The position numbers and the translations under genes were made by a program. This document shows positions 9,129 through 27,792 of a DNA stretch of 64,000 nt, piece after piece; the stretch's first letter is position 1; each line of letters begins with the position of its first letter. This DNA is from an uncultured Caldilineales bacterium (GTDB lineage Bacteria; Chloroflexota; Anaerolineae; JAAEKA01): positions 1 through 64,000 of the forward strand of contig CALESQ010000079.1 in NCBI GenBank assembly GCA_937907455.1. The letters run 5' to 3'. The notes beneath the pieces were generated by a model. That model searched no databases. It saw only the letters and a program-made list of their open reading frames with translations, and was not told where the DNA came from.

Positions 9129-9140
9129 CCCCCCCCCCCC
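9129..9140 (+). repeat. C12 homopolymeric tract in the 5' leader of the AsnC-type gene.
   Basis: cgcc followed by cccccccccc at 9129-9140, lying between the promoter and the start codon at 9173. Confidence 0.9.
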
Positions 9141-9172
9141 GAAACGGCCTCATTTCCTCGCAGGAGCTTGTT

Positions 9173-9451
9173 ATGGTCAATGCCATTGTGCTGTTTAACG
9201 TCGAGCGCGGCCACGTCAACGCGGTGGCGCAGCAGTTGGTGGCGCTGGACGGCGTCACCGAGGTGTTTTCGGTGGCGGGACGCTACGATCTGGTGGCGGT
9301 GTTGCGCACGGCCAGCAACGAGCAGATCGCCGACCTGGTGACGCGCGCCATCATGCAGATCGAACACATCACGCACACGGAGACGCTGCTGGCCTTCCGC
9401 ATGTTTTCAAAGTACGACCTGGAGGCGATGTTCGCGGTGGGGATGGAGTGA
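9173..9451 (+). CDS. AsnC/Lrp-type ligand-binding (RAM) domain protein; stand-alone small regulator.
   Basis: 92 aa. VLFNVERGHVNAVAQQLVALDGVTEVFSVAGRYDLVAVLRT is typical of the AsnC C-terminal (RAM) domain. Confidence 0.65.
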   Translation: MVNAIVLFNVERGHVNAVAQQLVALDGVTEVFSVAGRYDLVAVLRTASNEQIADLVTRAIMQIEHITHTETLLAFRMFSKYDLEAMFAVGME

Positions 9452-9455
9452 GGAG

Positions 9456-9570
9456 GAGACAAGTACACAAGGTGACAGGTAGACAGGTAGACAGGTAGAC
9501 AAGTACACAAGGTGAGAAGGGCGGAGGCTTTGTTTCCTTGTCTACTTATTCCGTGTCTGCTTGTCTGCTC
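9456..9570. repeat. Intergenic micro-repeat. GACAAGTACACAAGGTGA flanks (CAGGTAGA)x3, followed by an inverted partial copy (cttgtctacttattccgtgtctgcttgtctgc).
   Basis: Direct reading of 9456-9570, which lies between the convergent AsnC-type and IMPase genes. Confidence 0.8.
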
Positions 9571-10349
9571 GTTATCCTCTGCAACAGCGGCTCGATCAGC
9601 GCGGCGCGCGCGGCGAGGATCGGTTCGGGCGCGGCGCGGCCATCCAACAGCGGGGTGATCTCCACGGCTGCGCCGGAGAGGTAGCGCAGTTCGATGCCCA
9701 AAGCACTCAGCAGCGGCCAAACACCAGCCAAATCCCATAGCCTGACCGGACGCAGCAGCGCGCCCACCGCCGCGCCGCGGCCTACATAGACCAGATGCGC
9801 CGCCGCGCTGCCCAAACTACGCAGCCGGGGGTAGTCAATAGTGTAAAGCTGATGCCAGTTCGACGGCACAGCCAGAAACGCGGTGCGATCCTCTAACCCG
9901 AGGGCGGGCGGCAGCAGACGGCGGCCATTCAGAAACGCACCGCGGGGGTGGCCGGTGTACAACTCGCCCACGGCAGGCAGATAAAACGCACCAGCGACGG
10001 GAACGCCCTGCTGCAAAATCCCCACGGAGATACCCCACACCGGCAAACCACTCAAGTAAGCGCGGCTGCCGTCCAGCGGATCGAGCACCCAGGTGACCGC
10101 GGGATCGTCGCCGCCCAGGTTGCCCTCCTCGGCCAGAATGCGCTCGGCGGGGAAACGGCTGCGGATGCGCGCAGCCAGCAACGCCTCAATCTGCTCATCC
10201 ACCGCGCTCACCGGCGTGTGATCGGCTTTGTCGCGCACGGCAAGATCGGCGCGACGCGCAGCCAGTGCCATGCGCCCGGCCTGCCTGAGCGTCGGCGTGA
10301 TCCAACGCAACAGCCCGCGGACAGGGAGGGACAAAGCGTTTGTTGGCAT
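9546..10349 (-). CDS. Inositol monophosphatase family protein (SuhB/CysQ-like phosphatase).
   Basis: WVLDPLDGS (compare W.IDPIDGT) and WDLAGVWPLL (compare WD.AAG). Its start lies 2 nt downstream of the stop of the AAA-wHTH gene. Confidence 0.8.
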   Translation of the reverse strand: MPTNALSLPVRGLLRWITPTLRQAGRMALAARRADLAVRDKADHTPVSAVDEQIEALLAARIRSRFPAERILAEEGNLGGDDPAVTWVLDPLDGSRAYLSGLPVWGISVGILQQGVPVAGAFYLPAVGELYTGHPRGAFLNGRRLLPPALGLEDRTAFLAVPSNWHQLYTIDYPRLRSLGSAAAHLVYVGRGAAVGALLRPVRLWDLAGVWPLLSALGIELRYLSGAAVEITPLLDGRAAPEPILAARAALIEPLLQRITSRQADTE

Positions 10350-10351
10350 CG

Positions 10352-11713
10352 TCAGGAGACGGCGTTCTCTGGCGTGTCCACCAGCCGGTAGCCATGCCCG
10401 CGCACGGTGAGCAGGTAGCGCGGTTGCGTCGCATCCGGCTCGATGGCGCGGCGCAGGTGGCGCATCAGCGAGTCAATGCGGTTTTCGCTGCCGGCCTTGT
10501 CAGGATCAAGCGCCTCGGTGGGGTATAACGCGGCCAAAATCTCATCACGGCTGCACACCTGGCCCAGCCGACGATAGAGCAGGCGCAGCAAGTCGTATTC
10601 CAGCTTGCTGAGATCGGCCAGGCGGCGGCCCTCCACCCACACCACGGCCGCGGCCTCGTCCAGCCACAGCCCGCGGTGGCTCAGCGTGCCTTTCTCCAGC
10701 ACGAAATGATGAAACACCGGCGAGAAAAAGGTCGGCTGCTCGCTGTTCTCGTCGCGAATTAAGCCTTTCAGCGCCAGCAATTCACGCGGGGTGTACGGCG
10801 CGCCGATGCCCTGGGCGAGGCGGCTCAAGGCCAGGCGCTCATCCTCGGCCAGGCCCTGCCACAGCTTGCGGTATTCTTCTGCGACCGCGGGCTGAGCCAG
10901 CGCCCAATGCACCTGCGCGTCTGCATCCGCGGGTAACTCGGTGCGCGCCAGCACATCAGACAACGCCACCAGCGAACCGGGGTGTCCACCGCTGAGACGC
11001 AGCATGGCGGCGATTTCGGCCTCGCTCCAGGCGCGGCCACGGCGCGCGGCGATCTGTGCAACCACCTGCCGCGCGTCCACATCGTTGTAGGGCTTCAAGC
11101 CAAGCACCGAGCGCGACAGCAACTCGTAGAAGCCTTCACTGTCCGCGCGGTCACGCAGGCGGCCCGGATGATCGCGCAGCATCAGCACAAAGCACACCTG
11201 ATAGCGGTCGTTGTCGCGCAGGGCGCGCAGATTGGCCAGCGCGGCCGCGGGCAAGGTGCGGTAGCTCTCGTCGAACTCGTCGAGGATGAAGCACAGGCGC
11301 AAACCATGCTCACGGCACAGGGTGCGCGTGGCCAGCTCCAAATGACGTTGCGCCAGCAGCGCGTCGCGGCGGGTAATTGCCTCTGCACGCAGCGCGTTCA
11401 GCCATTCGCGCGCGTCCGCGGGGACGCGGTTGCCCACGCCCTCGATCAGCGCGGTGAGCAGCAGCTCGTACAGGCCCCAGTCGCTTTTCTCGGCCAGGCG
11501 GTTGCAGTCCGCCAGCAGCAGCGCGGTGTGGAGCGCAGCCTCGCTCAGGTAGTGCTGCTGCACCTCCGCGCGCTGGAGGAAGAGCAGCAGCCGCGACTTG
11601 CCCATGCTGGCCGAGCCGATGATGGCCGCGGACTCGCCGCCGCGCAGGAGGTCAAAGAGGGGCGCGGCGATTTCGGCACGAAAAGAAAGGGGGTAATCGG
11701 TTAAAACAAGCAT
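10352..11713 (-). CDS. N-terminal AAA/STAND-like P-loop ATPase fused to a C-terminal OmpR/PhoB-type winged-helix DNA-binding domain.
   Basis: Walker A GSASMGKSRLL and Walker B LCFILDEFDE. C-terminus LSKLEYDLLRLLYRRLGQVCSRDEILAALYP...RIDSLMRHLRRAIEP...YLLTVRGHGYRL (trans_reg_C). Confidence 0.75.
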   Translation of the reverse strand: MLVLTDYPLSFRAEIAAPLFDLLRGGESAAIIGSASMGKSRLLLFLQRAEVQQHYLSEAALHTALLLADCNRLAEKSDWGLYELLLTALIEGVGNRVPADAREWLNALRAEAITRRDALLAQRHLELATRTLCREHGLRLCFILDEFDESYRTLPAAALANLRALRDNDRYQVCFVLMLRDHPGRLRDRADSEGFYELLSRSVLGLKPYNDVDARQVVAQIAARRGRAWSEAEIAAMLRLSGGHPGSLVALSDVLARTELPADADAQVHWALAQPAVAEEYRKLWQGLAEDERLALSRLAQGIGAPYTPRELLALKGLIRDENSEQPTFFSPVFHHFVLEKGTLSHRGLWLDEAAAVVWVEGRRLADLSKLEYDLLRLLYRRLGQVCSRDEILAALYPTEALDPDKAGSENRIDSLMRHLRRAIEPDATQPRYLLTVRGHGYRLVDTPENAVS

Positions 11714-11715
11714 GT

Positions 11716-13938
11716 TCAGGCAGGGGTTAGGTTAGGATCAGAAGGAGTTGATGCTTTTAGCAATTTTTCCCACGACAACTCAATGCCTTCCGGATCGGCA
11801 AAATCAACATAAACCAGATAGGCAATGCGCAGGGGAAGCTCAACTTTTTCCTTGCGCAAGGGGACAAAGCGCCGTTCTCGATTAGCAGAATCAAGTGTCT
11901 GTAACATCAAATTCTCGAATTCCGTCCAACCGCTATCCATGTAATTTTGTGTGAGTATAGCCACAGTTTTTCGGCTTGTCTTAATTGCACGTTCCATTTC
12001 AATGACACTAGGCGCGCCTGGCTCAAAGTCAATGAAGTCAATACAAACCTTGAGATTGGCAGCTTTCAACCGCGGCAATAACTCAGCAACCACCCAGGCG
12101 CGATCCTTTGAACTGTAAGAAATAAAAACATCATACTCAAAGGACGAAGTTGTCGAGACAGAAGGTGATGATTGAGATGGAAATGATGGCTTCTTTGGAT
12201 TGCTCCAACTCTTGGGGGGCCAAGCATCATTTTGCCCGCTGTCCAGACTGCGACAAGTTGTGCCGCCTAACAGAGCGCATCGCTCATCCAGTGGAAGATC
12301 ACCCTCTTCTATTGGGTTATCTTCCTTCCGCATAGGCAAGGTTAAACGAAATGCTGTATTCAGCAGCAACGCCCAACGGTAAGGCCTGGTATCATCACCG
12401 GTTGTTGCTTTAGCGTGTTTACGGATGGTTTTAATGGCCTCAAAAGCCTTCACTGTATCGGTGCTAGCTCCTGAAGGCAAATCTGGCTCCCAAAATTTTA
12501 CTGGGTCTGACGAAAGCAGGTTAACGACAAGATGCAGAAACTCTGAAACCTTCGTTGCAAGTACCCGAAGAAGACGGGTGAGTATATCTATTTCTAACTC
12601 AACCCAATCGGCAAAAATCGGACCTGGGCCGGAGCGTTCGAAATCAATCAACCAAAGCTGCTTGGTTGTTTCATCTATAAAACAGTTGTCGGCCTGGAGA
12701 TCGCCGTGGATAACACACATTGGAATTGACTTGGGGCTATAGTCTTGGGAAACTATATAACCATTGGTTTCGCTGGCTTGTTCTAAAGCAATTCGTTGTT
12801 TTAGCCACGTAATTGGATCTGGGAGTTTTAGTTGCTCGCTAAACCAGGCTTGAAACTCAGGCGATACCTTTTCTAAAGCGCCTGCTGATGCACCGAAACG
12901 GTTGTGCCAGTTGTTGCCCCATAATGCTCTGTAAGCTTGATAAAGAGTTACTTTATTGTCGCCTTTTTCCTTTTTTGCATCATAGTAACTCTTCCACCCG
13001 GATCCGAAGTTGTTTAATACAGTGCAGATGTCTTCTGCCTGCCTTTCTTGATAATAGATGCGAAACAGAGCACCCACATCCCCAACATTCAAATAGCGAG
13101 TACCTTGGACATCCCATAAAACAGCTTCTGATTTCAGAGTAGCATAATACCTCAATGGAAATTTATCTTCCACGTACTTCTTATAACGAGTTGATTCATC
13201 ACGCGTCGGATCTGTTCGCACGATCTTGACAATATCGGAAATTGCGTTCCCATCTCGGTTAATCCGAATAACTACTGAACGCGGACGAACGCTACCTGCA
13301 CTGGGAAAACGATCATCGCTTTCTAAAGAATGGACTGCTAGCTGCTGGGCATCAGGATATAATTTCCAGAGGAGATCTTCTATTTCATCCACAGGAACAT
13401 CATCTTGATCAGGGAAAAGGCGTTTAATTAACTGTTCCGAGCCACCAATACTAAATGGCCATTTAATAAGCTCTTTTGTAAAGCGCCCCCAGTACTGGAG
13501 CTTTACTTCTTCAATAGTTTTCTCAAGCTCCTCAGGACCACTTTCCTTACCAACAAAGTCATAAGCGCGTAGGGGTACATCAGGTGGTGATTTGATAGCT
13601 GCACGCACGGTATCTTTGTCACCGTATCCGCTCACAATAATAGACACTGTAGGAGCGAGATGAGAAACAAGTTCCAAGCCTGTCCGATCAGTGGGATCAC
13701 CATCGCTTCTGAGCCGCATATCCACAAGAGCAATATGACATCGGTAATCATGCGCCTTTTTGATAGCGTCATCCCAAAGCGCCTGAAACAGATTGTCAGC
13801 GTCTTCGGGCGCTTCAGCCGCGTACGCTTCGTAACCCCAATCAGCAAGATTTTTGAGATGATCTTGTCGCCATTGCGGATCGTTCTCCACCACCAGAACA
13901 CGCGGCAGGTTCTCTTTACCCTTAGTATTGTCACTCAT
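11716..13938 (-). CDS. Three-domain protein: response-regulator receiver (REC), protein-kinase-like (APH/choline-kinase-type) phosphotransferase domain, and a C-terminal TIR domain.
   Basis: REC: RVLVVENDPQ...HIALVDMRL...VSIIVSGYG...AYDFVGK. Kinase-like: IHGDLQADNCFID (HGDLhxxN catalytic loop) and LWLIDFERSG (DFG/IDWE equivalent). TIR: YDVFISYSSKD (beta-A), DFEPG (BB-loop P-G) and SGWTEFENLM (the W-x-x-x-E glutamate used by NADase TIRs). Confidence 0.8.
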   Translation of the reverse strand: MSDNTKGKENLPRVLVVENDPQWRQDHLKNLADWGYEAYAAEAPEDADNLFQALWDDAIKKAHDYRCHIALVDMRLRSDGDPTDRTGLELVSHLAPTVSIIVSGYGDKDTVRAAIKSPPDVPLRAYDFVGKESGPEELEKTIEEVKLQYWGRFTKELIKWPFSIGGSEQLIKRLFPDQDDVPVDEIEDLLWKLYPDAQQLAVHSLESDDRFPSAGSVRPRSVVIRINRDGNAISDIVKIVRTDPTRDESTRYKKYVEDKFPLRYYATLKSEAVLWDVQGTRYLNVGDVGALFRIYYQERQAEDICTVLNNFGSGWKSYYDAKKEKGDNKVTLYQAYRALWGNNWHNRFGASAGALEKVSPEFQAWFSEQLKLPDPITWLKQRIALEQASETNGYIVSQDYSPKSIPMCVIHGDLQADNCFIDETTKQLWLIDFERSGPGPIFADWVELEIDILTRLLRVLATKVSEFLHLVVNLLSSDPVKFWEPDLPSGASTDTVKAFEAIKTIRKHAKATTGDDTRPYRWALLLNTAFRLTLPMRKEDNPIEEGDLPLDERCALLGGTTCRSLDSGQNDAWPPKSWSNPKKPSFPSQSSPSVSTTSSFEYDVFISYSSKDRAWVVAELLPRLKAANLKVCIDFIDFEPGAPSVIEMERAIKTSRKTVAILTQNYMDSGWTEFENLMLQTLDSANRERRFVPLRKEKVELPLRIAYLVYVDFADPEGIELSWEKLLKASTPSDPNLTPA

Positions 13939-16900
13939 GATTTCGCTCCTGAATTACTTGGCTTAGATGGCAGGCGGATAGCGAACAAAGCCCCTTGACC
14001 TTCAACGGCTGGGTAGAGATGGATGCGCCCGTTCATTGTTTCGATCAATGATTGGGCAATCAGTAAGCCAAAACCACTGTTTTGCTGGGTGTCGTCATTC
14101 TTTTTGGTCGAAAAGGGTCCGCGCAAAAGGTGTCGCCGCGCTTCAAAATCAAGACCAGGGCCGTTGTCCTGAATTTGCAGTTCCACTTGCTCAGAGGAAA
14201 GACGGTGGACGCGCAACGTGATTTGCTTAACAAGGGTTGTCGCCAGCGCTTCGGCTGCATTGCGCAATAGATGGCGTACAGCGCGCCAGGTTTGTTCTTT
14301 GTAGGCATAAACGACATGATCTTCATCGTCGGCAAAGGTTATCTTTACGTCGGAAGCGTTCGTGATGCGCCAGTGACGCACTCGGGGTTCGAGGAATTCT
14401 TTCAAAAAAAATCCGACCGGATCATTTCGTTCTATGTGCGCGTCACGCACAGTGTCTGCCAATTGCCCTGCGCGTCCGTCAATCTCTTTAGCCCAATCCA
14501 CTTTTTGATCTGCGGTAGCCCTGGTATCTGTTTGCAGCCAGCCCGCACGATTGCGAATATAGCCCACCTCGCTGTTGATGTCATGAGCAATATCAGCCGC
14601 CCAGGCCATCGCGCCGGCCACTGAAACGCGACTCTGTGCCAATGCAGCATGGCCTAAGCGGTCAAGCGCCAAAGCAACTTGTTTGGCTGCCATTTCAAAA
14701 AGTCTCTCGTCGTCTTCACCAAAAGCATTCGGTGTGTCACTCTTGATCACCAAGACCCCGATCAGCTTATCGTTGCTGCCCAATAAGCCAGCGCATAGCT
14801 CAGACTGTGTGTTTGAGTTGACTTCAACATATATGCCCTTGTACTTCTCGTCATGAACGTTTTTGACGTTTTCTATGATGATTTTCTTCTCGTTAAGGGA
14901 ACGTCGGGCTACCTCGCAGGTGATCCCTTCGCCGTCAAGGGGTAAACGGACACGGTGCTGATATTCAGGTATTGTAGGCTGATAAAATTCCCTTGCCACC
15001 TTGGGAAGCTCTAACACATCCTCGCGATCCTCGTAGAGCATAATATAAGGCGTTGCTGTAGGATCTTTGCGGCTAAACTCCTCTTTTAAGACGTTTAATA
15101 CGCCGCGCAAAACAGTGTCAAGGTCCAGGCTGGCTCCTGCGGCGGTGGCAACCCTCAAGGCAGTCTCAAATCGTTGCTGTCGCTGCTGTGCCAATTCCAG
15201 CGTTTGCGCATTGTGGATGGCGGTGGCAGCAGCGTCGGCAAAGGCGGTGAACAAGGCCCGCTCAGTAGCCAAAAACTCATGACGTTTGCGATAATTTAAG
15301 AATAATGCTCCAATTGCAGCAGATTTGGTACCGAAGCGCAAGGAAAGTGCCGCAGTTGAGAAAATGCCCTCCTCGCGCGTAAAGTCTCCATCTAAGACGG
15401 AGCCGTTCTCTATAACCGAAGCAAACAAAGGATTAGGGCGCTCCATCACGGTTTTCACCAGGTGATCACTGGTTCTGCTGCCACGATGTTTTTCGTTTTG
15501 TACATTCCATTGCGGCCCTGAAATCAGCTTGTCTTTGTCTTCTGCATCGGTATACCACATGGTGATGCAATCCAGTTCCGGCGCCACCTTGCGGGCATAC
15601 GCGACGATGGCGTCGAGGGTTGTGGCTAAGTCCATAGATGCAGACACGGTAGCAATCGTCTGCGCCATGGTTTGCAGATCACTGCGGGTGCGTACGCTAT
15701 CCAACGCCAACTCGCAGGCCCGGCCCAAGCGCTGTAAGCTCTCTTCATCCAGAGTGCTGAAGGATGCTTTCTTGTCTGATTGGCGGACGGCCAATGCGCC
15801 GATGGCTTTTTCACCGGTGCGCAGCAGAACAATTAAATCATTCTTGTTGCGGTGTAAAGGCTTGTTTTGCTCCAAAACCTGGCCAATCGCTCCAGCATGG
15901 ATTTCGCTAGACAGCGAGCGCAGCTCGCCTTTTGGGGTGAGATGATAATCGCGGCGCATTTGCTTGCGCTGTTCCCCTTCTCCTTCCCAGTGAGCTATAG
16001 CCAGAGTAGTTTTGACTCGGTGATCGAACAGGTCTGCAGTATTCGATAGAATGGAGCGTCTTAACTTTTTCTCATCCACATCGGAGGCCAACGCTTGAGC
16101 TTGAATGTTCGCGATCAGTTGCATGCTAAGCCGTTGCCGTTCCATGCCATGCTCAGCTTGGACGCGCCCATGTTGTTCCTGCCCGAATTCACGCGCATAG
16201 CTAATGACCGTAGCGCCAATTGTCGCCAGATGTTCGGAGCGGGCAATGTCCTCTTCGGTGAAAGATCGCGGTGTACGATAGTCAAAATAAATCACACCCA
16301 GCGGTTCTGCTGTCAAGGCTTTGCGCATGGGAACGGCTATCATTGCTTTGACACCTTCACGCTTGACAAATGAATGTTCAGCGAGGCGCTTGCCCCCAAA
16401 CTTTAGCGTAGAATGATCAACGTCAGCTACCACCAGATTACCAGATTGCAAGACCGAAAAGGTGACGCCTTGTTGGCGCGGTTTGTTTTTAGAGATGAAA
16501 TCATCACCGTGGTTCAAGCCACGATGGACAACGTTGTTCAAGTCATAAGCGCCTGTTTCAGCCAGATAGGGATAAATCACAATACTGTTCGCTGACATGA
16601 TGGAATCAGCGGATTGGTCACACAGGTCTTGCAAGCTCTCTTTTAAGGGTCGCTGGGCTGCCCGCTCGGTGATGCGCCGGTTGAGTGCGAGGATGTTTTC
16701 ATACTTTTCGCCAAGCAGGCGACTTCGGTTTCTTTCCTGTGCCTGCTGCCATTCAGTCATGGCCTGCGCCAGCAATTCTTCCACCTTGCTCAGATCGCCA
16801 TGACGAAGGGGCTCGCCGTCAAAAGCGTTGTCTACCCACAAAACCCCGATGACTTTGCCACCCTGTTTGACCGGCAGCAAGGCGCAGTCGTAGTCTGTTG

Positions 16901-18809
16901 CCTTGTCCAGTAAATCAGATGGGTGGGGCAATGAACTTTCCGGCAGCGCATTTTCCAATGCCGAAGAAGCCATGGTTCTGCGTGCTGGACTACGCAAAAT
17001 ATCAACCTGCTCTGAGCTAAGTCGCCACTCAACGACTGCCTGTTGCAGAGGGGTTGGATCAGACAAGGCCAGATGAGGAGCGGCAAAGTAGTCTTGCAGG
17101 CTTTTTTTGCCATCGCGATCCTTTTCCCAGGACCCCCGCGCCTCTTTGCGCGTCCAGTGGCCAATGGCCATGCGTCCCATCCAGAGGCTATCTGCCACCG
17201 GCGATTGCAAAAACAGCAAGGCGCGGTTGAAACTGTTGCCCTCGCGATGGGTAATCGTAGTCAACACGGCATGCCAAAAGCCTTCTTCTGACTCCTCGAT
17301 CAAACGCGGCAGCACGGCCCGGAGTTGCTTGGCTGCTTCATCCTGGCGCTTCTTCTCTTCTTCGCGCTCGTGCTGATAGGCCGCATAAATCGCACCGGCA
17401 ATTTGATCAGCAATTTTGCCGAGTAGCTGCTGATGGCTAGGCGTATAGGATATTTTTTCATCATAACTTTGAACAGCTAGCACACCAATGACTTTTCCAC
17501 TATCTAATCGCAGTGGCACGCCCAGCCAACAAGCAGCCGGCCTGCCAAAATGGTCAATGCCATTATCTTGACAGAATTTTATCGCATCATGAAAAAGCAG
17601 AGATTGGTTTTTGGATATGAGATAACCACTCACTGCACTACCTGGTTTATGCCAGTGGCGATCTTGTAACACGTTGTCTTCATAGTGTCTTCGATAATCA
17701 AGATAGCCTGTTTCCAAATCGGACAAAACAACCATAAAGTTAGATACATCCAGCTTGACACGTTTTCCCACCAGGCGGCGTATCTCGTCCAGCAGTTCAT
17801 CGAGATTGCTGGTAGCGGCTTTGGTAATGATCTGCCTGCCAATGGTACTCAACAACTCCGCTTCCCGCGCCTGCTCTTGCGTTTGCTCATGCAGCCGCGC
17901 CCGCTCTAACGCCGCTGCGGCCTGATTGCCGAACAAAGCTAATACCGCCCCGATTTGATTGCGCTGTTGTGCGCTAAAAGCAGAATCCAGTTCATCGTTG
18001 TCCAGAGTGAGTGTACCAACTTTGTGGTTTCCGCTCGACAGCGGGATTTTTACCCATTCTCCGACCGGTGGTTGCATCCCTTGGGCTGCATAAAATTCAT
18101 CAGTTCCACCCTTACCTGCCTCACGCGCCTTGAAGATCATCGGCTTGCCAGCTTCAATTGCTTGCTTGGAATACATTAACTCCTTCAAAGGTGCGCGCAA
18201 ACCTGCAAACCCTTTCAAGCGAGCGGTGCCTGCCTGACTAACACCTACCATTTCAGGATCACCCTGTGCTTCCTGGCCTTGTTCTACCAAGAGGCGCAAG
18301 CGCGCGCGCTTAAAATCAAAGTGTAGAGCGCCCTGAACAATGGCATCGGCTACAGCTTGCACGGTCGAGGCGCTCTGCATGGCGGTGGTGACCTCGGTCA
18401 AAATTTGCAGCCAGTTGCGTTCATTGCGAATACCACGGCTTTTTTCAATGGACTTAAGCACGTAGACGAGTTCGCGCGTGTCAAAAGGCTTGGTCAGATA
18501 GCGATACGCCCCCAAATCAAAGGCAGCAATCCCCGCCTCAACCTCGTTGTAACCAGTCAGGATGATGGCATCGCTTTCCGGGCTGAGATCGCGCAGTTGC
18601 CCCATCAAGACAACACCGTTAACGTCCGACCCTTCCAGGCGTTGATCCAAAACAAAAGCAGCAAAAGGCGAGGCAGCCTCCTTCACCGCCAAACGCGCCT
18701 GTGCTGCGCTGTTGACGGCAACCACATCAAATCCTTTTTCGAGTCGCCTCAGTTGCTCACCGAGCATGTGAGCAAGTACTTCGTCGTCGTCTACAATTAA
18801 AATACGCAT
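13935..18809 (-). CDS. Giant hybrid sensor histidine kinase: N-terminal REC, at least 6 tandem GAF domains, HisKA and HATPase_c (about 1,625 aa).
   Basis: REC: MRILIVDDDEV...AFVLDQRLEG. GAF cores, for example ACWLGVPLRLDSGKVIGVLAVQS, LGVIYFDY, IGALAVRQS and LIGVLVIKS. H-box ADIAHDINSEV. HATPase_c: QDNGPGLDF...GFGLLIAQSLIETMNGRI. The start was placed at the internal ATG at 18809 (MRILIV), giving a 16-nt gap to the upstream gene. Confidence 0.8.
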   Translation of the reverse strand: MRILIVDDDEVLAHMLGEQLRRLEKGFDVVAVNSAAQARLAVKEAASPFAAFVLDQRLEGSDVNGVVLMGQLRDLSPESDAIILTGYNEVEAGIAAFDLGAYRYLTKPFDTRELVYVLKSIEKSRGIRNERNWLQILTEVTTAMQSASTVQAVADAIVQGALHFDFKRARLRLLVEQGQEAQGDPEMVGVSQAGTARLKGFAGLRAPLKELMYSKQAIEAGKPMIFKAREAGKGGTDEFYAAQGMQPPVGEWVKIPLSSGNHKVGTLTLDNDELDSAFSAQQRNQIGAVLALFGNQAAAALERARLHEQTQEQAREAELLSTIGRQIITKAATSNLDELLDEIRRLVGKRVKLDVSNFMVVLSDLETGYLDYRRHYEDNVLQDRHWHKPGSAVSGYLISKNQSLLFHDAIKFCQDNGIDHFGRPAACWLGVPLRLDSGKVIGVLAVQSYDEKISYTPSHQQLLGKIADQIAGAIYAAYQHEREEEKKRQDEAAKQLRAVLPRLIEESEEGFWHAVLTTITHREGNSFNRALLFLQSPVADSLWMGRMAIGHWTRKEARGSWEKDRDGKKSLQDYFAAPHLALSDPTPLQQAVVEWRLSSEQVDILRSPARRTMASSALENALPESSLPHPSDLLDKATDYDCALLPVKQGGKVIGVLWVDNAFDGEPLRHGDLSKVEELLAQAMTEWQQAQERNRSRLLGEKYENILALNRRITERAAQRPLKESLQDLCDQSADSIMSANSIVIYPYLAETGAYDLNNVVHRGLNHGDDFISKNKPRQQGVTFSVLQSGNLVVADVDHSTLKFGGKRLAEHSFVKREGVKAMIAVPMRKALTAEPLGVIYFDYRTPRSFTEEDIARSEHLATIGATVISYAREFGQEQHGRVQAEHGMERQRLSMQLIANIQAQALASDVDEKKLRRSILSNTADLFDHRVKTTLAIAHWEGEGEQRKQMRRDYHLTPKGELRSLSSEIHAGAIGQVLEQNKPLHRNKNDLIVLLRTGEKAIGALAVRQSDKKASFSTLDEESLQRLGRACELALDSVRTRSDLQTMAQTIATVSASMDLATTLDAIVAYARKVAPELDCITMWYTDAEDKDKLISGPQWNVQNEKHRGSRTSDHLVKTVMERPNPLFASVIENGSVLDGDFTREEGIFSTAALSLRFGTKSAAIGALFLNYRKRHEFLATERALFTAFADAAATAIHNAQTLELAQQRQQRFETALRVATAAGASLDLDTVLRGVLNVLKEEFSRKDPTATPYIMLYEDREDVLELPKVAREFYQPTIPEYQHRVRLPLDGEGITCEVARRSLNEKKIIIENVKNVHDEKYKGIYVEVNSNTQSELCAGLLGSNDKLIGVLVIKSDTPNAFGEDDERLFEMAAKQVALALDRLGHAALAQSRVSVAGAMAWAADIAHDINSEVGYIRNRAGWLQTDTRATADQKVDWAKEIDGRAGQLADTVRDAHIERNDPVGFFLKEFLEPRVRHWRITNASDVKITFADDEDHVVYAYKEQTWRAVRHLLRNAAEALATTLVKQITLRVHRLSSEQVELQIQDNGPGLDFEARRHLLRGPFSTKKNDDTQQNSGFGLLIAQSLIETMNGRIHLYPAVEGQGALFAIRLPSKPSNSGAKS

Positions 18810-18825
18810 CGTTTTTCCCTTCCCG

Positions 18826-21039
18826 TCAGATACGATAGGGCAGCTCCACCGCCATGGTGGTGCCCCAAAGGGTATGGCTGGACTCGATAAATACACGACC
18901 GCCCTGAGATTCGATCAGGCTGCGGGCAATGAACAACCCCAGACCGCTTCCATCTTCTCTGGTGGTATAGTCCATCTCAAAAATTCGTTCCCACAAGCGC
19001 TGATGAATGCCCGGGCCGTCATCCTGCACATATAAGCGCAGGATGTTTTTTCCTTCATGTTTGGTTTGTAGCATTTGAATTTCAACCCGGCCGCCACGCT
19101 CCGGTCTCGTTAACGCGATTTGCTGGATGGCATTTTGTACTACATTCACCAACACCTGTTGCAGGTAGGTAATCATCGCCCGCGTGAAATAAAGTTTGGG
19201 AGCTGGGCGGAGAATTAATTCAACTTTGTTTTCTTTGGCCGTTTCGCTCAGCAGGCTCACCACTTCATGGGCAACTTCGTCCAGACGAATTAATTCTTCC
19301 ACCCCTGAGCGTGTTATTTTGCCGAAAGAGTGCATCGTATGGGCCATGCTTTGTGTTTGTTGCGTCAGCTTTTGCAGTTCTTCTTTTGTCCGTGCTGTTT
19401 CCCTGATAACTTCCTCAGGAGAAGTAAGGGCACATTGCTCTACCCGCTTGCAGCCCTCTTCGAGATCCCGCAAGATAAGATTGAGTGGGCTAATACGTCC
19501 GCTGATTTCATGAATCACGGTGCGGCTCAACTGCCCCAGCAAAGCAACCCGTTGTAAATCCGCCGTTTGTTTAATCAATTGCTGGCGTTCCAGCCAGGAA
19601 GCAATGCGCGCCGCGCTTCCTTCGGCGCTGGCGATCAGCCCATTGGGGATGAAAGCGAGCGGGTGACTGAAAAACAGGAACAATGCGTAGCGTTTGCGCA
19701 GATGAGCCGGCACCGGCACGCCGCAGCACGCGCTGAAATCAAGCAAAGGCAGCACGTGTCTTAAGCGTCCGGCGGTTTGCTGCTGAACATGGTTAGCAGT
19801 AAAAACAGTCTGCTCTTCAGCCACGTTGCGTATCGGACTGTAGATTAGCTCCGGCCACGCCGTGTTGCGCAAAGAAACAGGCCCTTTGTGTTCAAACACC
19901 TTGATCTGCGCCTGATCTGTATCCAGCTCAAAGAGCACTGCCTTGTCAGCTTGCGCAGCACTGATAGCACGCAGCAGCATAACAGCCAGTTCGCTTTGTT
20001 CAGCCTTGGGTACGGTAAATACAGATTGTTCTAATGTCATACGGGTAGGCGAACTGGAAGGTGCTAGTGATTGGTCGGGCTTTTCCAGCAACATTTCAGC
20101 TAAATGGTTAGGCAGTAAAGGCTTGATCAAGAGCGATACTCCCTCTTTGCGCAGGGGCGTTAGCTCCTTGTCACGGCGTTCTGCCCTTCCCCAATCGGTC
20201 ATCAACACGCAGCGCAGCTCAGGCCATTGGAATCTGATCTGCCGGGCTGCGGCAATGCCATCCATGCCGGGCAGGCCAATATCCATCAACACCAAATCCG
20301 CCGATTGTGCTTCAAGAAAGGCAAGAGCCTCCTCTGCCTTCTCAGCCACATAAACGACACGTTGACCGACATTACGTAGCCAGTTCGCCAGCGACAGACG
20401 TTGATCCTCCTCATCTTCTACCACTACGATAGATTTAGGAACGCTGCTCAAGAGCTGTTGAATAGCGGTATTGTTAAGTCGGCTGGGAGACAATCCCTGT
20501 ACTGCACTCTTTGTCACAGTTTCAGGGTAGTGCCCGGCGCTATTCCATCGGTATTTTTCCAGTTGGCGCATGCTCAAAGCAACCCGTCTGCGCTTGCGGT
20601 CAACCGCGTCTATCGTTACTTTGACCAGATCACCGGGCCAGAAAACATCACCTATTGCCTCTTGTTTCCAATCGGGAAGATGAGAGATATGAACCAACCC
20701 AGAAAAGTCCTTTTCGAGCTTAACAAATACCCCATACGGCATGATGCCATCAACAACGCCACTAACTAAAGCGCCTACTGGAAAGCCATCAGCAGTGACA
20801 TTCCACAAATAAGCTTCAGCCAGCCAAATTTCCTCACTGTGTTGGCCCACAGCTTCGATTGGCTGTACAACGATTTCCAGCGAGTCTCCAGGCTTGTAAC
20901 GAGGAATTCTGGGGAACTTTGCCAGGATTTCAGGATTTGTGTCCCGCACCAACCCCTGCCGCCCATCCGGCAGCGCGACAATCAACCCGGCAGGGGTTGC
21001 GCGCACAACACGGGCATGGAGGGGCTGCGAGTAAAGCAT
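18826..21039 (-). CDS. Hybrid sensor histidine kinase with two N-terminal S1 RNA-binding domains, then REC, HisKA and HATPase_c.
   Basis: S1 domain: GALVSGVVDGIMPYGVFVKLEKDFSGLVHISHL...GDLVKVTIDAVDRKRRRVALSMRQL. REC: KSIVVVEDEEDQRL...DLVLMDIGLPGMDG. H-box VIHEISGRISPL. HATPase_c: YVQDDGPGIH...GSGLGLFIARSLIESQGGRV. Confidence 0.75.
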   Translation of the reverse strand: MLYSQPLHARVVRATPAGLIVALPDGRQGLVRDTNPEILAKFPRIPRYKPGDSLEIVVQPIEAVGQHSEEIWLAEAYLWNVTADGFPVGALVSGVVDGIMPYGVFVKLEKDFSGLVHISHLPDWKQEAIGDVFWPGDLVKVTIDAVDRKRRRVALSMRQLEKYRWNSAGHYPETVTKSAVQGLSPSRLNNTAIQQLLSSVPKSIVVVEDEEDQRLSLANWLRNVGQRVVYVAEKAEEALAFLEAQSADLVLMDIGLPGMDGIAAARQIRFQWPELRCVLMTDWGRAERRDKELTPLRKEGVSLLIKPLLPNHLAEMLLEKPDQSLAPSSSPTRMTLEQSVFTVPKAEQSELAVMLLRAISAAQADKAVLFELDTDQAQIKVFEHKGPVSLRNTAWPELIYSPIRNVAEEQTVFTANHVQQQTAGRLRHVLPLLDFSACCGVPVPAHLRKRYALFLFFSHPLAFIPNGLIASAEGSAARIASWLERQQLIKQTADLQRVALLGQLSRTVIHEISGRISPLNLILRDLEEGCKRVEQCALTSPEEVIRETARTKEELQKLTQQTQSMAHTMHSFGKITRSGVEELIRLDEVAHEVVSLLSETAKENKVELILRPAPKLYFTRAMITYLQQVLVNVVQNAIQQIALTRPERGGRVEIQMLQTKHEGKNILRLYVQDDGPGIHQRLWERIFEMDYTTREDGSGLGLFIARSLIESQGGRVFIESSHTLWGTTMAVELPYRI

Positions 21040-21157
21040 GGTCGGCAGCTTTCGTGAACAGAAAACAGCATACAGACGAGGACGATAACGCGGGGAAAGT
21101 TCACTCGCTATTATAACACAGCCACACTGCCCTGCTGCTATCAGATTTCTGGCAAAA

Positions 21158-21262
21158 TCCTGACAAAGCTGTCAAAGATTTCTGACATGCGCCTTTTGTC
21201 AGAAATTGCAGCCAGTTGTCAGCCGCCAGACAGCCTGGTGTCAGGTAGGAATTCCTGACCTG
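21158..21262. promoter_or_regulatory. Array of TGTCAG/CTGACA inverted repeats (candidate operator sites) in the promoter region of the S1-HK / TIR operon.
   Basis: CTGACAaagcTGTCA (21160-21174); TTCTGACAtgcgccttTTGTCAGAA (21180-21204); TTGTCAGccgcCAGACA (21216-21235); GGTGTCAGGtaggaattCCTGACC (21238-21260). Also a direct repeat AGATTTCTG x2. Confidence 0.55.
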
Positions 21263-21342: not shown

Positions 21343-21567
21343 ATGGAAATCGCACTCGTGTTGCTGTTCATCATCGGTCTGATGGGTGTCTACATTCTTT
21401 ACCTGACCGTGCGCCTGAGCCTGTCGAGCCGCACCACGATGGTAGTGATGGCCCCAACTCCTGCTGGCGAGCAAGGTAACGGCTGCGGCGTGGCCGTGTT
21501 CCTGATCCTGACCATCATTGCAGCCATCATCCTCACCCTGGTCTTTGGACCGATCTTTCTCGGATAA
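21343..21567 (+). CDS. Small two-TM membrane protein (hypothetical).
   Basis: RBS AAAGGAG; two hydrophobic helices (LVLLFIIGLMGVYILYL and VFLILTIIAAIILTLVFG). Confidence 0.5.
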   Translation: MEIALVLLFIIGLMGVYILYLTVRLSLSSRTTMVVMAPTPAGEQGNGCGVAVFLILTIIAAIILTLVFGPIFLG

Positions 21568-21620
21568 ACTACCCCCACTCTATAATCACTCCGCAACCCC
21601 ATTTGCAAAGGAGTATCCCC

Positions 21621-21983
21621 ATGAACACCCTCACCGCCAAACTCTACGAGAAGAAACTGTTGGAAGAAAAAGCTTGGTGCACTGACATGATCGAACACCT
21701 GGCTGACCATGCCACCATGGACCCCCAGAACAACTACGCCGTAACAATGGCTCGGCACAAGCTGGTCAAGATCGAACGGGCTTTACGCCGGGTTGCTGCC
21801 GGCACCTATGATCAGTGCGACCAATGCGGCGACAAGATCGAGGCGGAGCGCCTTGAAATCCTGCTTGACAGCGAACACCATAGCTGCGCCCGTTGCGCCA
21901 CTGCCATTCGTCCCACCAACAAGCGAATGCCGGTGCGCCAACCAGCCTACGGCTACGGCCAGATGGCCCTGGCGCAGGCATAG
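21621..21983 (+). CDS. DksA/TraR-family C4 zinc-finger protein.
   Basis: CDQCGDKIEAERL...HHSCARCA four-Cys finger after an N-terminal coiled coil. RBS AAAGGAGT upstream of the ATG at 21621. Confidence 0.65.
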   Translation: MNTLTAKLYEKKLLEEKAWCTDMIEHLADHATMDPQNNYAVTMARHKLVKIERALRRVAAGTYDQCDQCGDKIEAERLEILLDSEHHSCARCATAIRPTNKRMPVRQPAYGYGQMALAQA

Positions 21984-22035
21984 CGCTAAACCCTCACCCT
22001 ACACGCGTTTCTGTTGAGGCACAGGAGGCAAGCCC

Positions 22036-22359
22036 ATGAACGTTCCCAACCTGCGCAACTCTGACACCGCCGGACTAGCCGCCATTCGTCGCTGGCAGCC
22101 ATGCGCCATAATCGCTGCTGATATGGCTGCAACCACCGGCGACTCGGTCCAGCCAATCTATTTTAACATCAGTTATGGCCTTGCTGCCCAAGCCCATTAC
22201 CCCTGGGCAGCCCGGATGTGGGAACTGAAAACTCCTCCCAAGCGTCCGGCAATTGACAAAATCGTACTCTCTGCAGAGGCTCTCACCTGCCTGCAGGATG
22301 TGCTAGATCTGCTAGAGGCAACGCTCATCCCATCAACCGACTATGTACTTATACAATAA
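22036..22359 (+). CDS. Hypothetical protein.
   Basis: ORF with RBS ACAGGAGG; followed by a terminator. Confidence 0.4.
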   Translation: MNVPNLRNSDTAGLAAIRRWQPCAIIAADMAATTGDSVQPIYFNISYGLAAQAHYPWAARMWELKTPPKRPAIDKIVLSAEALTCLQDVLDLLEATLIPSTDYVLIQ

Positions 22360-22377
22360 GTATGACCAACCGCACTG

Positions 22378-22412
22378 AACGCTGTTCTGGCCAACCAGAG
22401 CAGCGTTTTTGA
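22378..22412 (+). terminator. Rho-independent terminator.
   Basis: aacgctgttctgg cc aa ccagagcagcgtt followed by TTTTT. Confidence 0.6.
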
Positions 22413-22536
22413 TTCTCATCTCCGAACTCTACACACACGCTCTGCGCGGCGTTCACCGCGTCCCTGTGATTTGACAAGTTGCCCTACTGTAAATAGAATT
22501 AGAACATATTTTCTAATTCCCGAGAAACAATCAACC

Positions 22537-22797
22537 ATGGGTCAACTCGTCTGGCATCGGCACGACATCGAGAATATCCTGCGCGGCGTGGAGCTGGCAG
22601 GCCTGCAAACCGCGGGTCAGATGAATGACGCAGAGCTGGCCGGCTATCGCCGCGGCTTCCTGGCCGCGTTGGCGGCCACGGCTACCAGCTTCGGCATTGA
22701 GGTGAGACCCTTGCCTCTCGCCGCCCCCGCAGAAAGCCAACTCCCCCCCCTTACCCCCGCGCATCACCGCTATCCAAACCGAACGGGAGAGCGCTAA
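22537..22797 (+). CDS. Hypothetical small protein (weak call).
   Basis: ORF from the internal ATG MGQLVWHR. No recognisable domain. Confidence 0.3.
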   Translation: MGQLVWHRHDIENILRGVELAGLQTAGQMNDAELAGYRRGFLAALAATATSFGIEVRPLPLAAPAESQLPPLTPAHHRYPNRTGER

Positions 22798-24189
22798 CTT
22801 AGCGAATCAGGGCCTGCACCGCGGTTGCCCATGTTCCTCAGCAATTCCATCATCAGCAAACGCGTTACCATGTCCATTTCCTGACCGGTGGCGCTGGTGG
22901 CGGTATTACCGCTGCGCTGAATCTGCTCAATCATACTGAGCATCAGCAGATCGTTAGGGCTGGTATGGTAACTTCGCGCTTCACGCATAGCATCTGACAT
23001 TTTTTTTAGCGCTTCGCCGCGACCTTCAGCGACGTGAAAATCTATATCGCGCTGCAAATCAGCCTGCTCCCAGGCGAATTTTTGATCTTTATCAGCTACC
23101 CAGCGTTGCATAAGTCGCTGCGCGGCCAGGTCGGGGATGGTCACCGCGCCGATGCCGGTAATTGTCACTGTTACGCCCAAAAATTCATCGGTTACTTTGT
23201 TCACCAAATTACCCAGCTTCTTCTTGAATTCCGTTCGTCCTTCGCCATTCAACTTCAGAAACGTTTCCAGATCATAATCGGCAATGGCGTTGCGCGCTTC
23301 GCGTTCGGTAATGGCACGTACCGCGGTCCCCCAACTATTACCAGATGGCGACCAAACCTTGTTTGTGAGAAACATGTCCAGGTTCTTTTTCAGCTCCTGC
23401 GCAGAAATTCCCTTAAACTGTGGGGGGTTCACCTTGTGAAACACCGCCAGATTTAACTCTTCAATCACCAGAGGATCGCTGGTAGAGGCATTTCTCACCA
23501 CCACGGCTTCTCCTCTGCCAAAGAGCGGCACCACCATACAGATGCGCTCCATAGCTCCTAGCCAATGACTGCCTTCTTCTATAAAACGGGCGATACGGCC
23601 ACTTCGCTCGACAATCACCACATGATCGCGCTGCACTTCGATGGCTCCCGGCCCGGTGAGCACGGGATACGGAGGCGGAGCGGCCCGCAGCGTGACGATC
23701 TCGCCGTTGCGTATCTCCCATTCCGCCGGCACCCAGCCCAGGGCGCGCCGTAAGCCCAGCGTAAATGCATCGAACTTGCTCACACCCATCACTTGCGAGT
23801 CCGGCAGCAGGCGCAACAGCCTCACCGGCCCCAGCAGCAACGCGAACAACACCAGGGTGCCACCCATGCCCAGCAGCAAACCCCAGAAGTTTTGCAGCAG
23901 CGCTGTACCTGCAAAGACATGGATAAAGCGCGCCGCCGTGCCTTCGCTGAATACCTCATGCACACGGCCAAGTCCCCAGCGAAACAGCCAGGCAAGGGCC
24001 AATGCCTGCATAACAAACAGCCCACCATAGATGGCCGGGCGCTCTCGCCCCGGCGACCCGCGCAATAAAAGGAACATACACACGGCCAATGCCGCCGGCA
24101 CCAGGAAAATAATCCAGGGCCAGCCCAACTGAAGCGACCAAAAACCAGTAGCCACCATCACAAGGAGGATTAACAACGAACGCACCATG
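22794..24189 (-). CDS. Polytopic membrane protein (4 N-terminal TM helices) with a C-terminal soluble domain of possible SPFH/band-7 type (uncertain).
   Basis: N-terminal hydrophobic helices; C-terminal alpha-helical Lys/Glu-rich region. No diagnostic motif. Confidence 0.4.
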
Positions 24190-24433
24190 ACGCACCTCCA
24201 CTTGCCACCACCAAAAACCAAACCCGAAAGACGACAGCCACACAGTGCAAAATTTAGCAGCGTTGCACAGTCGCCGGCCCACTCCGAGCTTCCAACTCCA
24301 CTGTCTGGGCAATTTCTGCCGCAAGGGCAAAAACCCCCAAGTTAACAAGAAACAAAGCGTCACTATTGTCACACAAACAGATAACAAAAACCATGATTTA
24401 AATCATATTAGCCTTGCCAAAATCAGGGCGGCC

Positions 24434-27604: not shown

Positions 27605-27792
27605 ACACTTGCTCTTTCTTGAAGCACTTGGGCACAACAGTTGCCCCAGCGATTGTAACATAAAACAAAGGAACCAGCAACGATCACTACCCATCCGGCG
27701 TGATTTGTGTTATAATCCCGCCCATCGGTGCAGCCCTGCGCTGCTTGAAACCCGCCGACCCGTCAGGTTGGCGCTTGTTGCGGAAGGTAGCC

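Follow-up and report, generated by a model that had tools for sequence, protein, structure and literature searches.

Within a 64,000-nucleotide stretch of DNA from an uncultured Caldilineales bacterium (contig CALESQ010000079.1, positions 1 to 64,000; here called the window), five minus-strand genes at 9546-21039 probably form a conflict module, immune or programmed-cell-death, that is wired through two-component signaling and is typical of filamentous Chloroflexota. In order of transcription, they encode a histidine kinase (HK) with S1 and receiver (REC) domains, S1-REC-HK (737 aa; 18826..21039); a multi-GAF kinase, REC-(GAF)x5-HK (1624 aa; 13935..18809, with the longest open reading frame [ORF] extending to 18896); a 740-aa effector protein, REC-TCAD9-TIR (11716..13938), in which TCAD9 is an APH-like kinase domain; a 453-aa STAND/Orc-like AAA+ NTPase fused to an OmpR-type winged helix-turn-helix (wHTH), AAA-wHTH (10352..11713); and, as the last gene and an accessory one, an IMPase-family phosphatase (267 aa; 9546..10349). 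The kinases were assigned by Pfam and orthologue alignment, the effector and AAA-wHTH proteins by Pfam and by Foldseek searches with AlphaFold2 (AF2) models, and the phosphatase by Pfam. The original prediction had treated the TIR domain as the defining part. Judged from the homologous sequences, the conserved core is instead the receiver together with the APH-like kinase, and TIR is one among many interchangeable C-terminal effectors.

An ORF check found all five genes in place, and the Pfam profile search upheld the domain calls made before (S1, REC, GAF, HATPase_c, TIR, kinase-like, wHTH, and IMPase). Reading the junctions directly, we saw the stop codon of the GAF-HK gene overlap the start of the REC-TCAD9-TIR gene in an ATGA (13935-13938), and gaps of 2 nt between REC-TCAD9-TIR and AAA-wHTH (TGA-AC-ATG, 11716/11713) and between AAA-wHTH and IMPase (TGA-CG-ATG, 10352/10349). 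At the remaining junction, the S1-HK stop (18826) is followed after 16 nt by an ATG at 18809, preceded by a ribosome-binding site, that opens GAF-HK with MRILIVDDD. The longest ORF begins at a GTG at 18896. Because all GAF-HK homologues align from its Met30 (MRILIVDDD), and because it is the ATG at 18809 that has the ribosome-binding site, the GTG start is probably an over-extension and the true start the ATG, giving 1624 aa. With this start, a 71-nt overlap with S1-HK becomes a 16-nt gap, and consecutive genes are spaced by -4, 2, 2, and 16 nt. A single compact operon is borne out by the spacing and by the recurrence of the gene order in other genomes.

The REC-TCAD9 family is rare. Among 1.84 billion representatives, 79 homologues were found at E ≤ 1e-30 and 553 at E ≤ 1e-3, the best with 54% identity. 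Placing homologues on contigs and in 30 species-level genomes gave about 38 independent loci, and their neighbors were counted from tblastn and blastp searches that used the window proteins as queries. The loci belong to Anaerolineales, Caldilineaceae, Chloroflexia, Ardenticatenaceae, and Ca. Viridilinea, nearly all of them Chloroflexota, with one metagenome-assembled genome (MAG) labelled Nitrospirae. A GAF-type HK lies directly upstream of REC-TCAD9, on the same strand, at all 36 assessable loci. The AAA module lies directly downstream at 30 of 34, and S1-REC-HK is found further upstream, ahead of GAF-HK, at no fewer than 19. This arrangement is repeated at L001 and L004-L041, in dozens of species-level genomes. 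A search seeded with AAA-wHTH found the same cassette in L038, L040, and L041; L039 starts at the AAA-wHTH gene, so it shows AAA-wHTH and IMPase only. In some homologues the linkage to a histidine kinase is a fusion: P0219 reads REC-GAF-HK-...-TCAD9 and over 1218 aa is 29% identical to the window kinase, and P0280 has the order GAF-HATPase-REC-TCAD9. In another, P0252, TCAD9 and the AAA module form one protein (36% identity over 354 aa, E 1e-64). On this comparative evidence, the gene set is a conserved unit, not a chance juxtaposition. The original prediction was to fail if homologues nowhere else had a histidine kinase beside them, and it clearly withstands that check.

The effector protein begins with a receiver domain (aa 13-145; 13504..13902, minus strand), assigned by alignment and AF2. 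It scores 22 bits in Pfam against a cut-off of 30.2, yet the model is matched over its full length, and the receivers of some homologues do reach the cut-off. The acceptor D73 and the accompanying S103 and K131 are at least 90% conserved among 39 homologues, and in Foldseek the AF2 model of the receiver matches DivK (TMt 0.77). The kinase domain follows (aa about 165-580; 12199..13446; alignment and Foldseek). It scores 58.4 bits against TCAD9 (PF19974; cut-off 40), 60.7 bits when the region is searched in isolation, and 27 bits against APH. K238, E248, H411-G412-D413, N418, and D432 are invariant or near-invariant in the 39 homologues and also in 150 representatives. The domain thus has the beta3 Lys, alphaC Glu, HxD...N loop, and metal-binding Asp of APH and eukaryotic-like kinases, and its model matches APH(3') kinases (APH(3')-Ia, E 1.5e-6). 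At the C terminus is the TIR domain (aa about 601-730; 11749..12138), recognized by Pfam TIR_2/TIR (TIR_2, 1.4e-22) and phmmer. Against the PDB, its nearest phmmer matches are the TIRs of TLR1/2/6 and MyD88 (E 4e-10 for TLR6/TLR1/MyD88), with AbTir and TcpB weaker. Glu675, in the motif WTEFE, aligns with the WCxxE / WxxxE Glu of the TLR1/6 TIRs and is kept in homologues P0007-P0010; by motif comparison, we take this position to correspond to the catalytic Glu of plant-type NADase TIRs. The catalytic-type residues of all three domains, which had been described as intact, are therefore present: E675, the receiver Asp, and the kinase K/E/HGD/N/D set. The AF2 model has a predicted local distance difference test score (pLDDT) of 81 overall and above 90 in the receiver and kinase. 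As a domain, TCAD9 was catalogued by the Aravind group in conflict systems (PMC7159879, PMC8195603).

Both upstream proteins have the parts of sensor kinases. S1-REC-HK (Pfam S1, 1.9e-15; Response_reg, 5.4e-18; HATPase_c, 7.1e-17) has a clear S1 RNA-binding domain at aa 87-158, possibly with a degenerate S1-like domain ahead of it, then REC at aa 204-316 (D253), an unassigned middle domain, the DHp (His510), and HATPase_c. His510, in 'HE[IV]N', and the G1/G2 Gly residues are invariant in 18/18 orthologues, as are D253 and K306 of the receiver. By Pfam and alignment, REC-(GAF)x5-HK has an N-terminal REC (D55), five GAF stretches, the H-box 'AHDIN' (His1409), and HATPase_c, which in both kinases reaches a Pfam E of about 1e-17. 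In its 15 orthologues, His1409, D55, and the G2 Gly residues are invariant, K107 of the receiver is K in 12 and R in 3, and the G1 box is conserved in part only (10/15 at one position, for example). No Pfam HisKA or other DHp model matched the regions ahead of HATPase_c in either kinase, and we relied on conservation of the His; an NCBIfam AtoS alignment does span the DHp of S1-REC-HK. An H-box His with HATPase_c is thus found in both kinases, and acceptor Asp, Thr/Ser, and Lys in the three receivers. The original prediction had spoken of a phosphorelay. In the strict sense this did not hold, because Pfam and NCBIfam gave no HPt domain in the five operon proteins or their neighbors and the receivers are N-terminal to the kinase cores. 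What the operon encodes is instead a branched His-to-Asp pathway, made up of two transmitters and three receivers. From their domains, S1-REC-HK is a candidate RNA sensor and GAF-HK a candidate small-ligand sensor.

The third component, AAA-wHTH, belongs to a family of more than 198 homologues with a uniform length of about 450 aa. In Pfam, Trans_reg_C matches at 1.2e-16, and AAA_16, nSTAND1, and AAA_22 all stay under the gathering cut-off; nSTAND1 and AAA_16 reach it in relatives. The alignment shows no change at G38-K39 of Walker A, D145-E146 of Walker B, or GGHPG (242-246). In Foldseek, the AF2 model, with a pLDDT of 90, resembles PAB2304, an archaeal ATPase, as well as Orc1/Cdc6 and the nucleotide-binding modules of NLRs (RPP1/Apaf-1 NOD), and the Walker A/B NTPase, helical lid, and winged helix of the STAND/Orc-Cdc6 core are all there. 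Neither Pfam nor AF2 gave a repeat sensor arm (TPR, WD40, or LRR); the protein ends in the OmpR-type winged-helix DNA-binding domain (aa about 350-447), which resembles the DNA-binding domain of VicR/YycF of the OmpR family (TMt about 0.8) and in phmmer against the PDB matches RpaA, VicR, and others. Some relatives are without the wHTH. The IMPase (Pfam Inositol_P, 4.9e-32) has the family's DPLDGS and WDLAG motifs in its translation and reached no NCBIfam equivalog cut-off. It follows the cassette in six distant loci (L009, L012, L018, L019, L025, and L038) and is an accessory confined to some lineages.

Upstream of the operon, a promoter/operator region (21095..21255, minus strand) was delineated by repeat search and by aligning six orthologous promoters, those of the window and of L001, L005, L006, L008, and L009. 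TGnCA(R) repeats, direct and some inverted, occupy about 21140-21250 in the 300-bp gap before a divergent small-gene operon. An extended -10 element, TGTTATAAT, lies at about 21104-21112, with TGnTAT..T invariant across the six promoters. About 39 nt farther upstream, TGnCA occurs as three direct half-sites, set 9 and 11 nt apart and likewise invariant. What had been called a palindrome-rich promoter is therefore real and conserved in orthologues but is better called a TGnCA(R) direct-repeat array with some inverted copies. A generic scan for sigma-70 promoters and terminators found sites no more often than in shuffled sequences and did not list the extended -10, because there is no -35 hexamer. 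Counts of CTGACA/TGTCAG upstream of S1-HK genes are enriched in the close clade only, not across all loci. OmpR/PhoB-type winged helices bind direct repeats of helical-turn period, and this makes AAA-wHTH the obvious candidate to bind the TGnCA repeats.

Next to the constant REC-TCAD9 core, the C terminus varies. Among the 79 homologues it is TIR, CHAT, caspase, DUF4062, peptidase C25, or nothing, and caspase occurs alone or with PNP_UDP_1, EAD7, Metallophos, or TIR. A Pfam census of 70 proteins sampled from the 150 representatives found TCAD9 in 69 and Response_reg in 44; the effectors were CHAT (7), TIR_2 (6), Caspase (4), Trypsin_2 (3), EAD7 (2), and SIR2_2, PNP_UDP_1, and Metallophos (1 each). 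Separate effector genes can take the same slot: CHAT and NUDIX in L010, Trypco2 in L009 and L040, and HEPN in L009. This variation follows the "conserved chassis, displaced effector" grammar that Kaur et al. described for conflict systems (PMC7159879).

Several loci depart from the layout of the window. In Anaerolineales H71_756, the closest genome at species level, the cassette is enlarged (L009:9965-20252) and comprises REC-TCAD9, TCAD9-CHAT, Trypco2, AAA-wHTH, HEPN, a second nSTAND1-like AAA, Band_7, and IMPase; on the same contig, about 15 kb downstream, is a second, smaller HK and REC-TCAD9 pair (L033). Stand-alone receivers of 153-155 aa lie between GAF-HK and the REC-TCAD9-effector gene at L006:9201-9668 and L038:4299-4760. 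At L040:4436-5529, REC-GAF-HK is split by an ISAzo13-type DDE transposase that leaves the HATPase part as a 303-aa ORF, and this insertion sequence (IS) may have inactivated the sensor.

Base composition divides the operon in two. The G+C content (GC) is 0.665 in AAA-wHTH and IMPase (0.76-0.82 at third codon positions, GC3), 0.458 in the TIR gene (GC3 0.41), and 0.52 in the kinases, with the break exactly at 11713/11716. The same contrast recurs in L005, L006, L009, and L038. The last of these, from an Anaerolineae MAG (GCA_049299095.1), is the closest genome fragment and has 80% DNA identity to window positions 9162-11680, and the AsnC-type gene downstream of IMPase is syntenic in it. Amino acid identity between the two is 84% for AAA-wHTH and 79% for IMPase, against 34% for GAF-HK and 35% for REC-TCAD9, and the effector is Metallophos in L038 versus TIR in the window. 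From these comparisons, it looks like the sensor-plus-effector block was exchanged as a cassette beside a stable AAA-wHTH/IMPase anchor, with the breakpoint at a gene junction. We therefore argue that kinase and receiver travel together as partners; such an exchange beside a conserved anchor would be a natural example of sensor-effector pairs on the move.

A working scheme can be drawn from these parts. S1-REC-HK and REC-GAFx5-HK, responding to RNA and small ligands, respectively, would autophosphorylate on their conserved His and pass the phosphate to Asp73 of REC-TCAD9-TIR. The N-terminal receivers of the kinases would act as cross-regulating inputs or as phosphate sinks that set a threshold, comparable to the buffer receiver DtcB of the antiphage system Detocs. 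Once phosphorylated, the effector's receiver would turn on the APH-like kinase and, via oligomerization, TIR, which would consume NAD+ or make a nucleotide signal and so lead to growth arrest or death. The AAA+-wHTH protein would be an ATP-gated transcriptional arm that probably binds the TGnCA repeats and probably serves the TCAD9 kinase as partner or substrate; the IMPase, where present, may reset a phosphorylated small-molecule product. More tentatively than we assign the operon to conflict, at somewhat under an even chance, we propose that it represents an undescribed class of system, immune or for programmed death, that only filamentous Chloroflexota have. In this class, an RNA-sensing S1-HK and a multi-GAF HK would feed, through Asp phosphorylation, a receiver-gated APH-like kinase that joins a minimal STAND-type ATPase transcription factor in releasing swappable death effectors (TIR, SIR2, PNP, caspase, and CHAT); it would be distinct from Detocs and the first case of a two-component-controlled TIR.

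A number of observations weigh against a role in conflict. Giant multi-GAF kinases are typical physiological sensors. PADLOC and NCBIfam returned no system-level or equivalog match for the five operon proteins, only generic TIR, REC, and HK matches. The window locus sits among housekeeping genes, without a recognizable defense island. Some relatives do adjoin SLFN/AlbA_2, helicase, HEPN, or HNH-helicase genes. No relatives were found in phage records, and plasmid records match the TIR domain only; viral contigs gave just two marginal kinase-motif fragments. These sequence searches offer no evidence for an origin in mobile elements. The TIR part of the AF2 model has low confidence, and this domain is as close to the scaffolding TLR/MyD88 type as to NADase TIRs. 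The relatives all come from uncultured or poorly studied Chloroflexota. Which HK serves which receiver, what the APH-like kinase phosphorylates, which DNA the wHTH recognizes, and what the IMPase does are all inferred, and the defense function, like RNA and small-ligand sensing, is a prediction. Finally, because about half of the family has no recognizable death effector, kinase plus transcription may be the core output, which would fit ordinary signaling equally well.

The best competing account is one of ordinary, non-conflict signaling: the two kinases would combine physiological inputs (GAF ligands, RNA or translation status), the REC-gated APH-like kinase and AAA-wHTH would drive stress, dormancy, or filament development, and the peptidase or TIR add-ons would serve developmental death or proteolytic signaling. 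Besides the effectorless half of the family, the chromosomal housekeeping context agrees with it, as do an AAA-wHTH/IMPase pair that is inherited stably and vertically and keeps its flanks, a promoter that looks autoregulatory, and DksA-like and SPFH (Band_7) neighbors, which are typical of stress physiology. We nevertheless consider it unlikely, at roughly one chance in four. The swappable TIR, SIR2, PNP, caspase, CHAT, trypsin, Metallophos, and EAD7 domains and the inserted HEPN, Trypco2, and NUDIX make up a known conflict repertoire (PMC7159879). Close relatives differ by wholesale replacement of sensor and effector, marked by a break in composition; this points to evolution by diversification or horizontal exchange, which is unusual for housekeeping signaling. 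In L040, an IS interrupts the kinase.

To our knowledge, Detocs is so far the sole shown case of two-component signaling as a direct immune trigger. Like the operon described here, it places an HK gene beside a receiver fused to a toxic effector rather than to a DNA-binding domain, and its effector domain is exchangeable. Experiments established it as an antiphage system of HK, buffer REC, and REC-effector with effector swapping (Rousset et al. 2023; bioRxiv 10.1101/2023.01.24.525353), the effector being PNP in 80% of operons and others in the rest (bioRxiv 10.1101/2023.01.24.525353). The locus could then be a divergent Detocs member, with counterparts of the kinase DtcA, the buffer receiver DtcB, and the receiver-effector DtcC. 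In addition to the shared logic of an HK with a REC-fused, swappable effector, PNP_UDP_1 effectors occur in P0006, P0017, and P0225, and the extra receiver has parallels in the stand-alone receivers of L006 and L038 and in the receivers on both window kinases. We regard membership as very improbable. The window has two kinases with S1 and multi-GAF sensors, whereas Detocs has one TPR kinase; a conserved APH-like kinase, missing from Detocs, stands between receiver and effector; and the set also includes a conserved AAA+(-wHTH) protein and, in some lineages, an IMPase. Effectors of the window family include TIR, CHAT, caspase, trypsin, and SIR2, and the family is nearly all in Chloroflexota. 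PADLOC matched neither kinase and called nothing Detocs among the operon proteins, although the release may not hold Detocs models. With no TPR kinase, stand-alone REC, or direct REC-effector fusion in the window, we did not accept the assignment; domain make-up sets the operon apart.

The original prediction knew of no described system with a TIR under two-component phosphotransfer. Detocs precedes it in principle; the TIR output and this cassette were not found described. In the literature we searched, neither this cassette nor a TIR under two-component control turned up, although supplementary tables or subscription papers could describe it, and the accessible part of the Kaur 2020 supplement does not mention TCAD9. 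The cassette is apparently undescribed. If the proposed class is real, it would be a second, independently built two-component immune trigger with richer wiring than Detocs, and it would offer a testable link from His-Asp phosphotransfer to TIR, caspase, and SIR2 effectors. It would also supply a candidate cytoplasmic RNA-sensing histidine kinase and a role for the orphan TCAD9 kinase domain, and would add to the picture of apoptosis-like, highly regulated death pathways in multicellular bacteria.

Three other kinds of known system share parts with the operon. The vWA-MoxR ternary systems have TCAD9, EAD7, Trypco2, an nSTAND1-like NTPase, TIR, caspase, and CHAT in common with it, as well as the grammar of effector displacement and a bias to filamentous or multicellular bacteria (PMC7159879, PMC8195603). 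Receivers in conflict systems of that type occur independently of histidine kinases (PMC7159879, PMC8195603), whereas here an HK always adjoins REC-TCAD9 and is sometimes fused to it. TCAD9 is present, but no vWA, MoxR, VMAP, iSTAND, or TERNS3 was found in the operon, in its flanks out to about 10 kb, or at the related loci, and without the core of vWA, MoxR, and a third component we did not place the operon there. Thoeris and other TIR defenses were considered as well. They share a TIR with a conserved catalytic-type Glu, and the TIR part gives weak ThsB-like, retron-TIR, and PDC-S66 matches. The window, in contrast, has no ThsA-like signal receptor, its TIR is a swappable add-on, and activation is predicted to go through Asp phosphorylation, not direct phage sensing; membership in Thoeris was not accepted. 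The STAND regulators (Avs/NLR-like, LAL/MalT, and SARP/AfsR) resemble AAA-wHTH in coupling an Orc/STAND-like P-loop NTPase, with lid and winged helix, to a DNA-binding domain, and in SARP/AfsR this is an OmpR-type wHTH, the same type as in the window. Unlike them, the window protein is minimal (about 450 aa), has no TPR, WD40, or LRR sensor arm, and carries its wHTH at the C terminus, not the N terminus; the Pfam STAND models fall under cut-off in it, and some of its relatives have no wHTH.

Least credible of all is the idea that a low-GC, horizontally acquired HK-HK-TIR block has come by chance, or recently, to lie beside an unrelated high-GC AAA-wHTH/IMPase pair, for although the break at 11713/11716 is sharp (GC 0.46-0.52 versus 0.665; GC3 0.41 versus 0.82), the two parts adjoin at 30/34 assessable loci across Chloroflexota orders with the same GC contrast in L005, L006, L009, and L038, are fused as TCAD9-AAA in P0252, and are separated by only 2 nt.

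The divergent small-gene operon beyond the promoter (21343..22797, plus strand; from the ORF list) encodes a 74-aa membrane peptide conserved in the close clade (21343-21567), a DksA/TraR-like zinc finger with weak zf-dskA_traR and NCBIfam yteA/DksA-like matches (21603-21983), and two unassigned proteins of 107 aa and 108 aa. It is followed by an SPFH/Band_7 membrane protein on the minus strand (22794-24221). By tblastn for the divergent genes, these and Band_7 are kept beside the cassette in L001, L004, L005, L006, L008, and L009, not in distant loci, and it is uncertain whether the small-gene operon is part of the system. The rest of the window is housekeeping (PGK, CofD-like, acyl-CoA ligase, VanW, penicillin amidase, ECF sigma factor, and OsmC). 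No further AAA or TCAD9 paralogue was found in it, and tRNA and Rfam scans of the window gave no match.

On the other side, the IMPase gene converges on a gene for an AsnC-type ligand-binding domain (92 aa; about 9173-9451, plus strand), and the gap between them contains an 8-nt tandem repeat, AGACAGGT, in about 6.6 copies (9457-9509). Between the OsmC-like and AsnC-type genes is a run of about 12 G on the minus strand (about 9129-9141), which may be prone to slippage or may have arisen in assembly. Farther away, at window positions 312-3242 and 27700-30360, are 587-aa and 300-aa ORFs without a Pfam family and an 886-aa protein with a weak N-terminal HerA/FtsK-like (DUF87) P-loop match.

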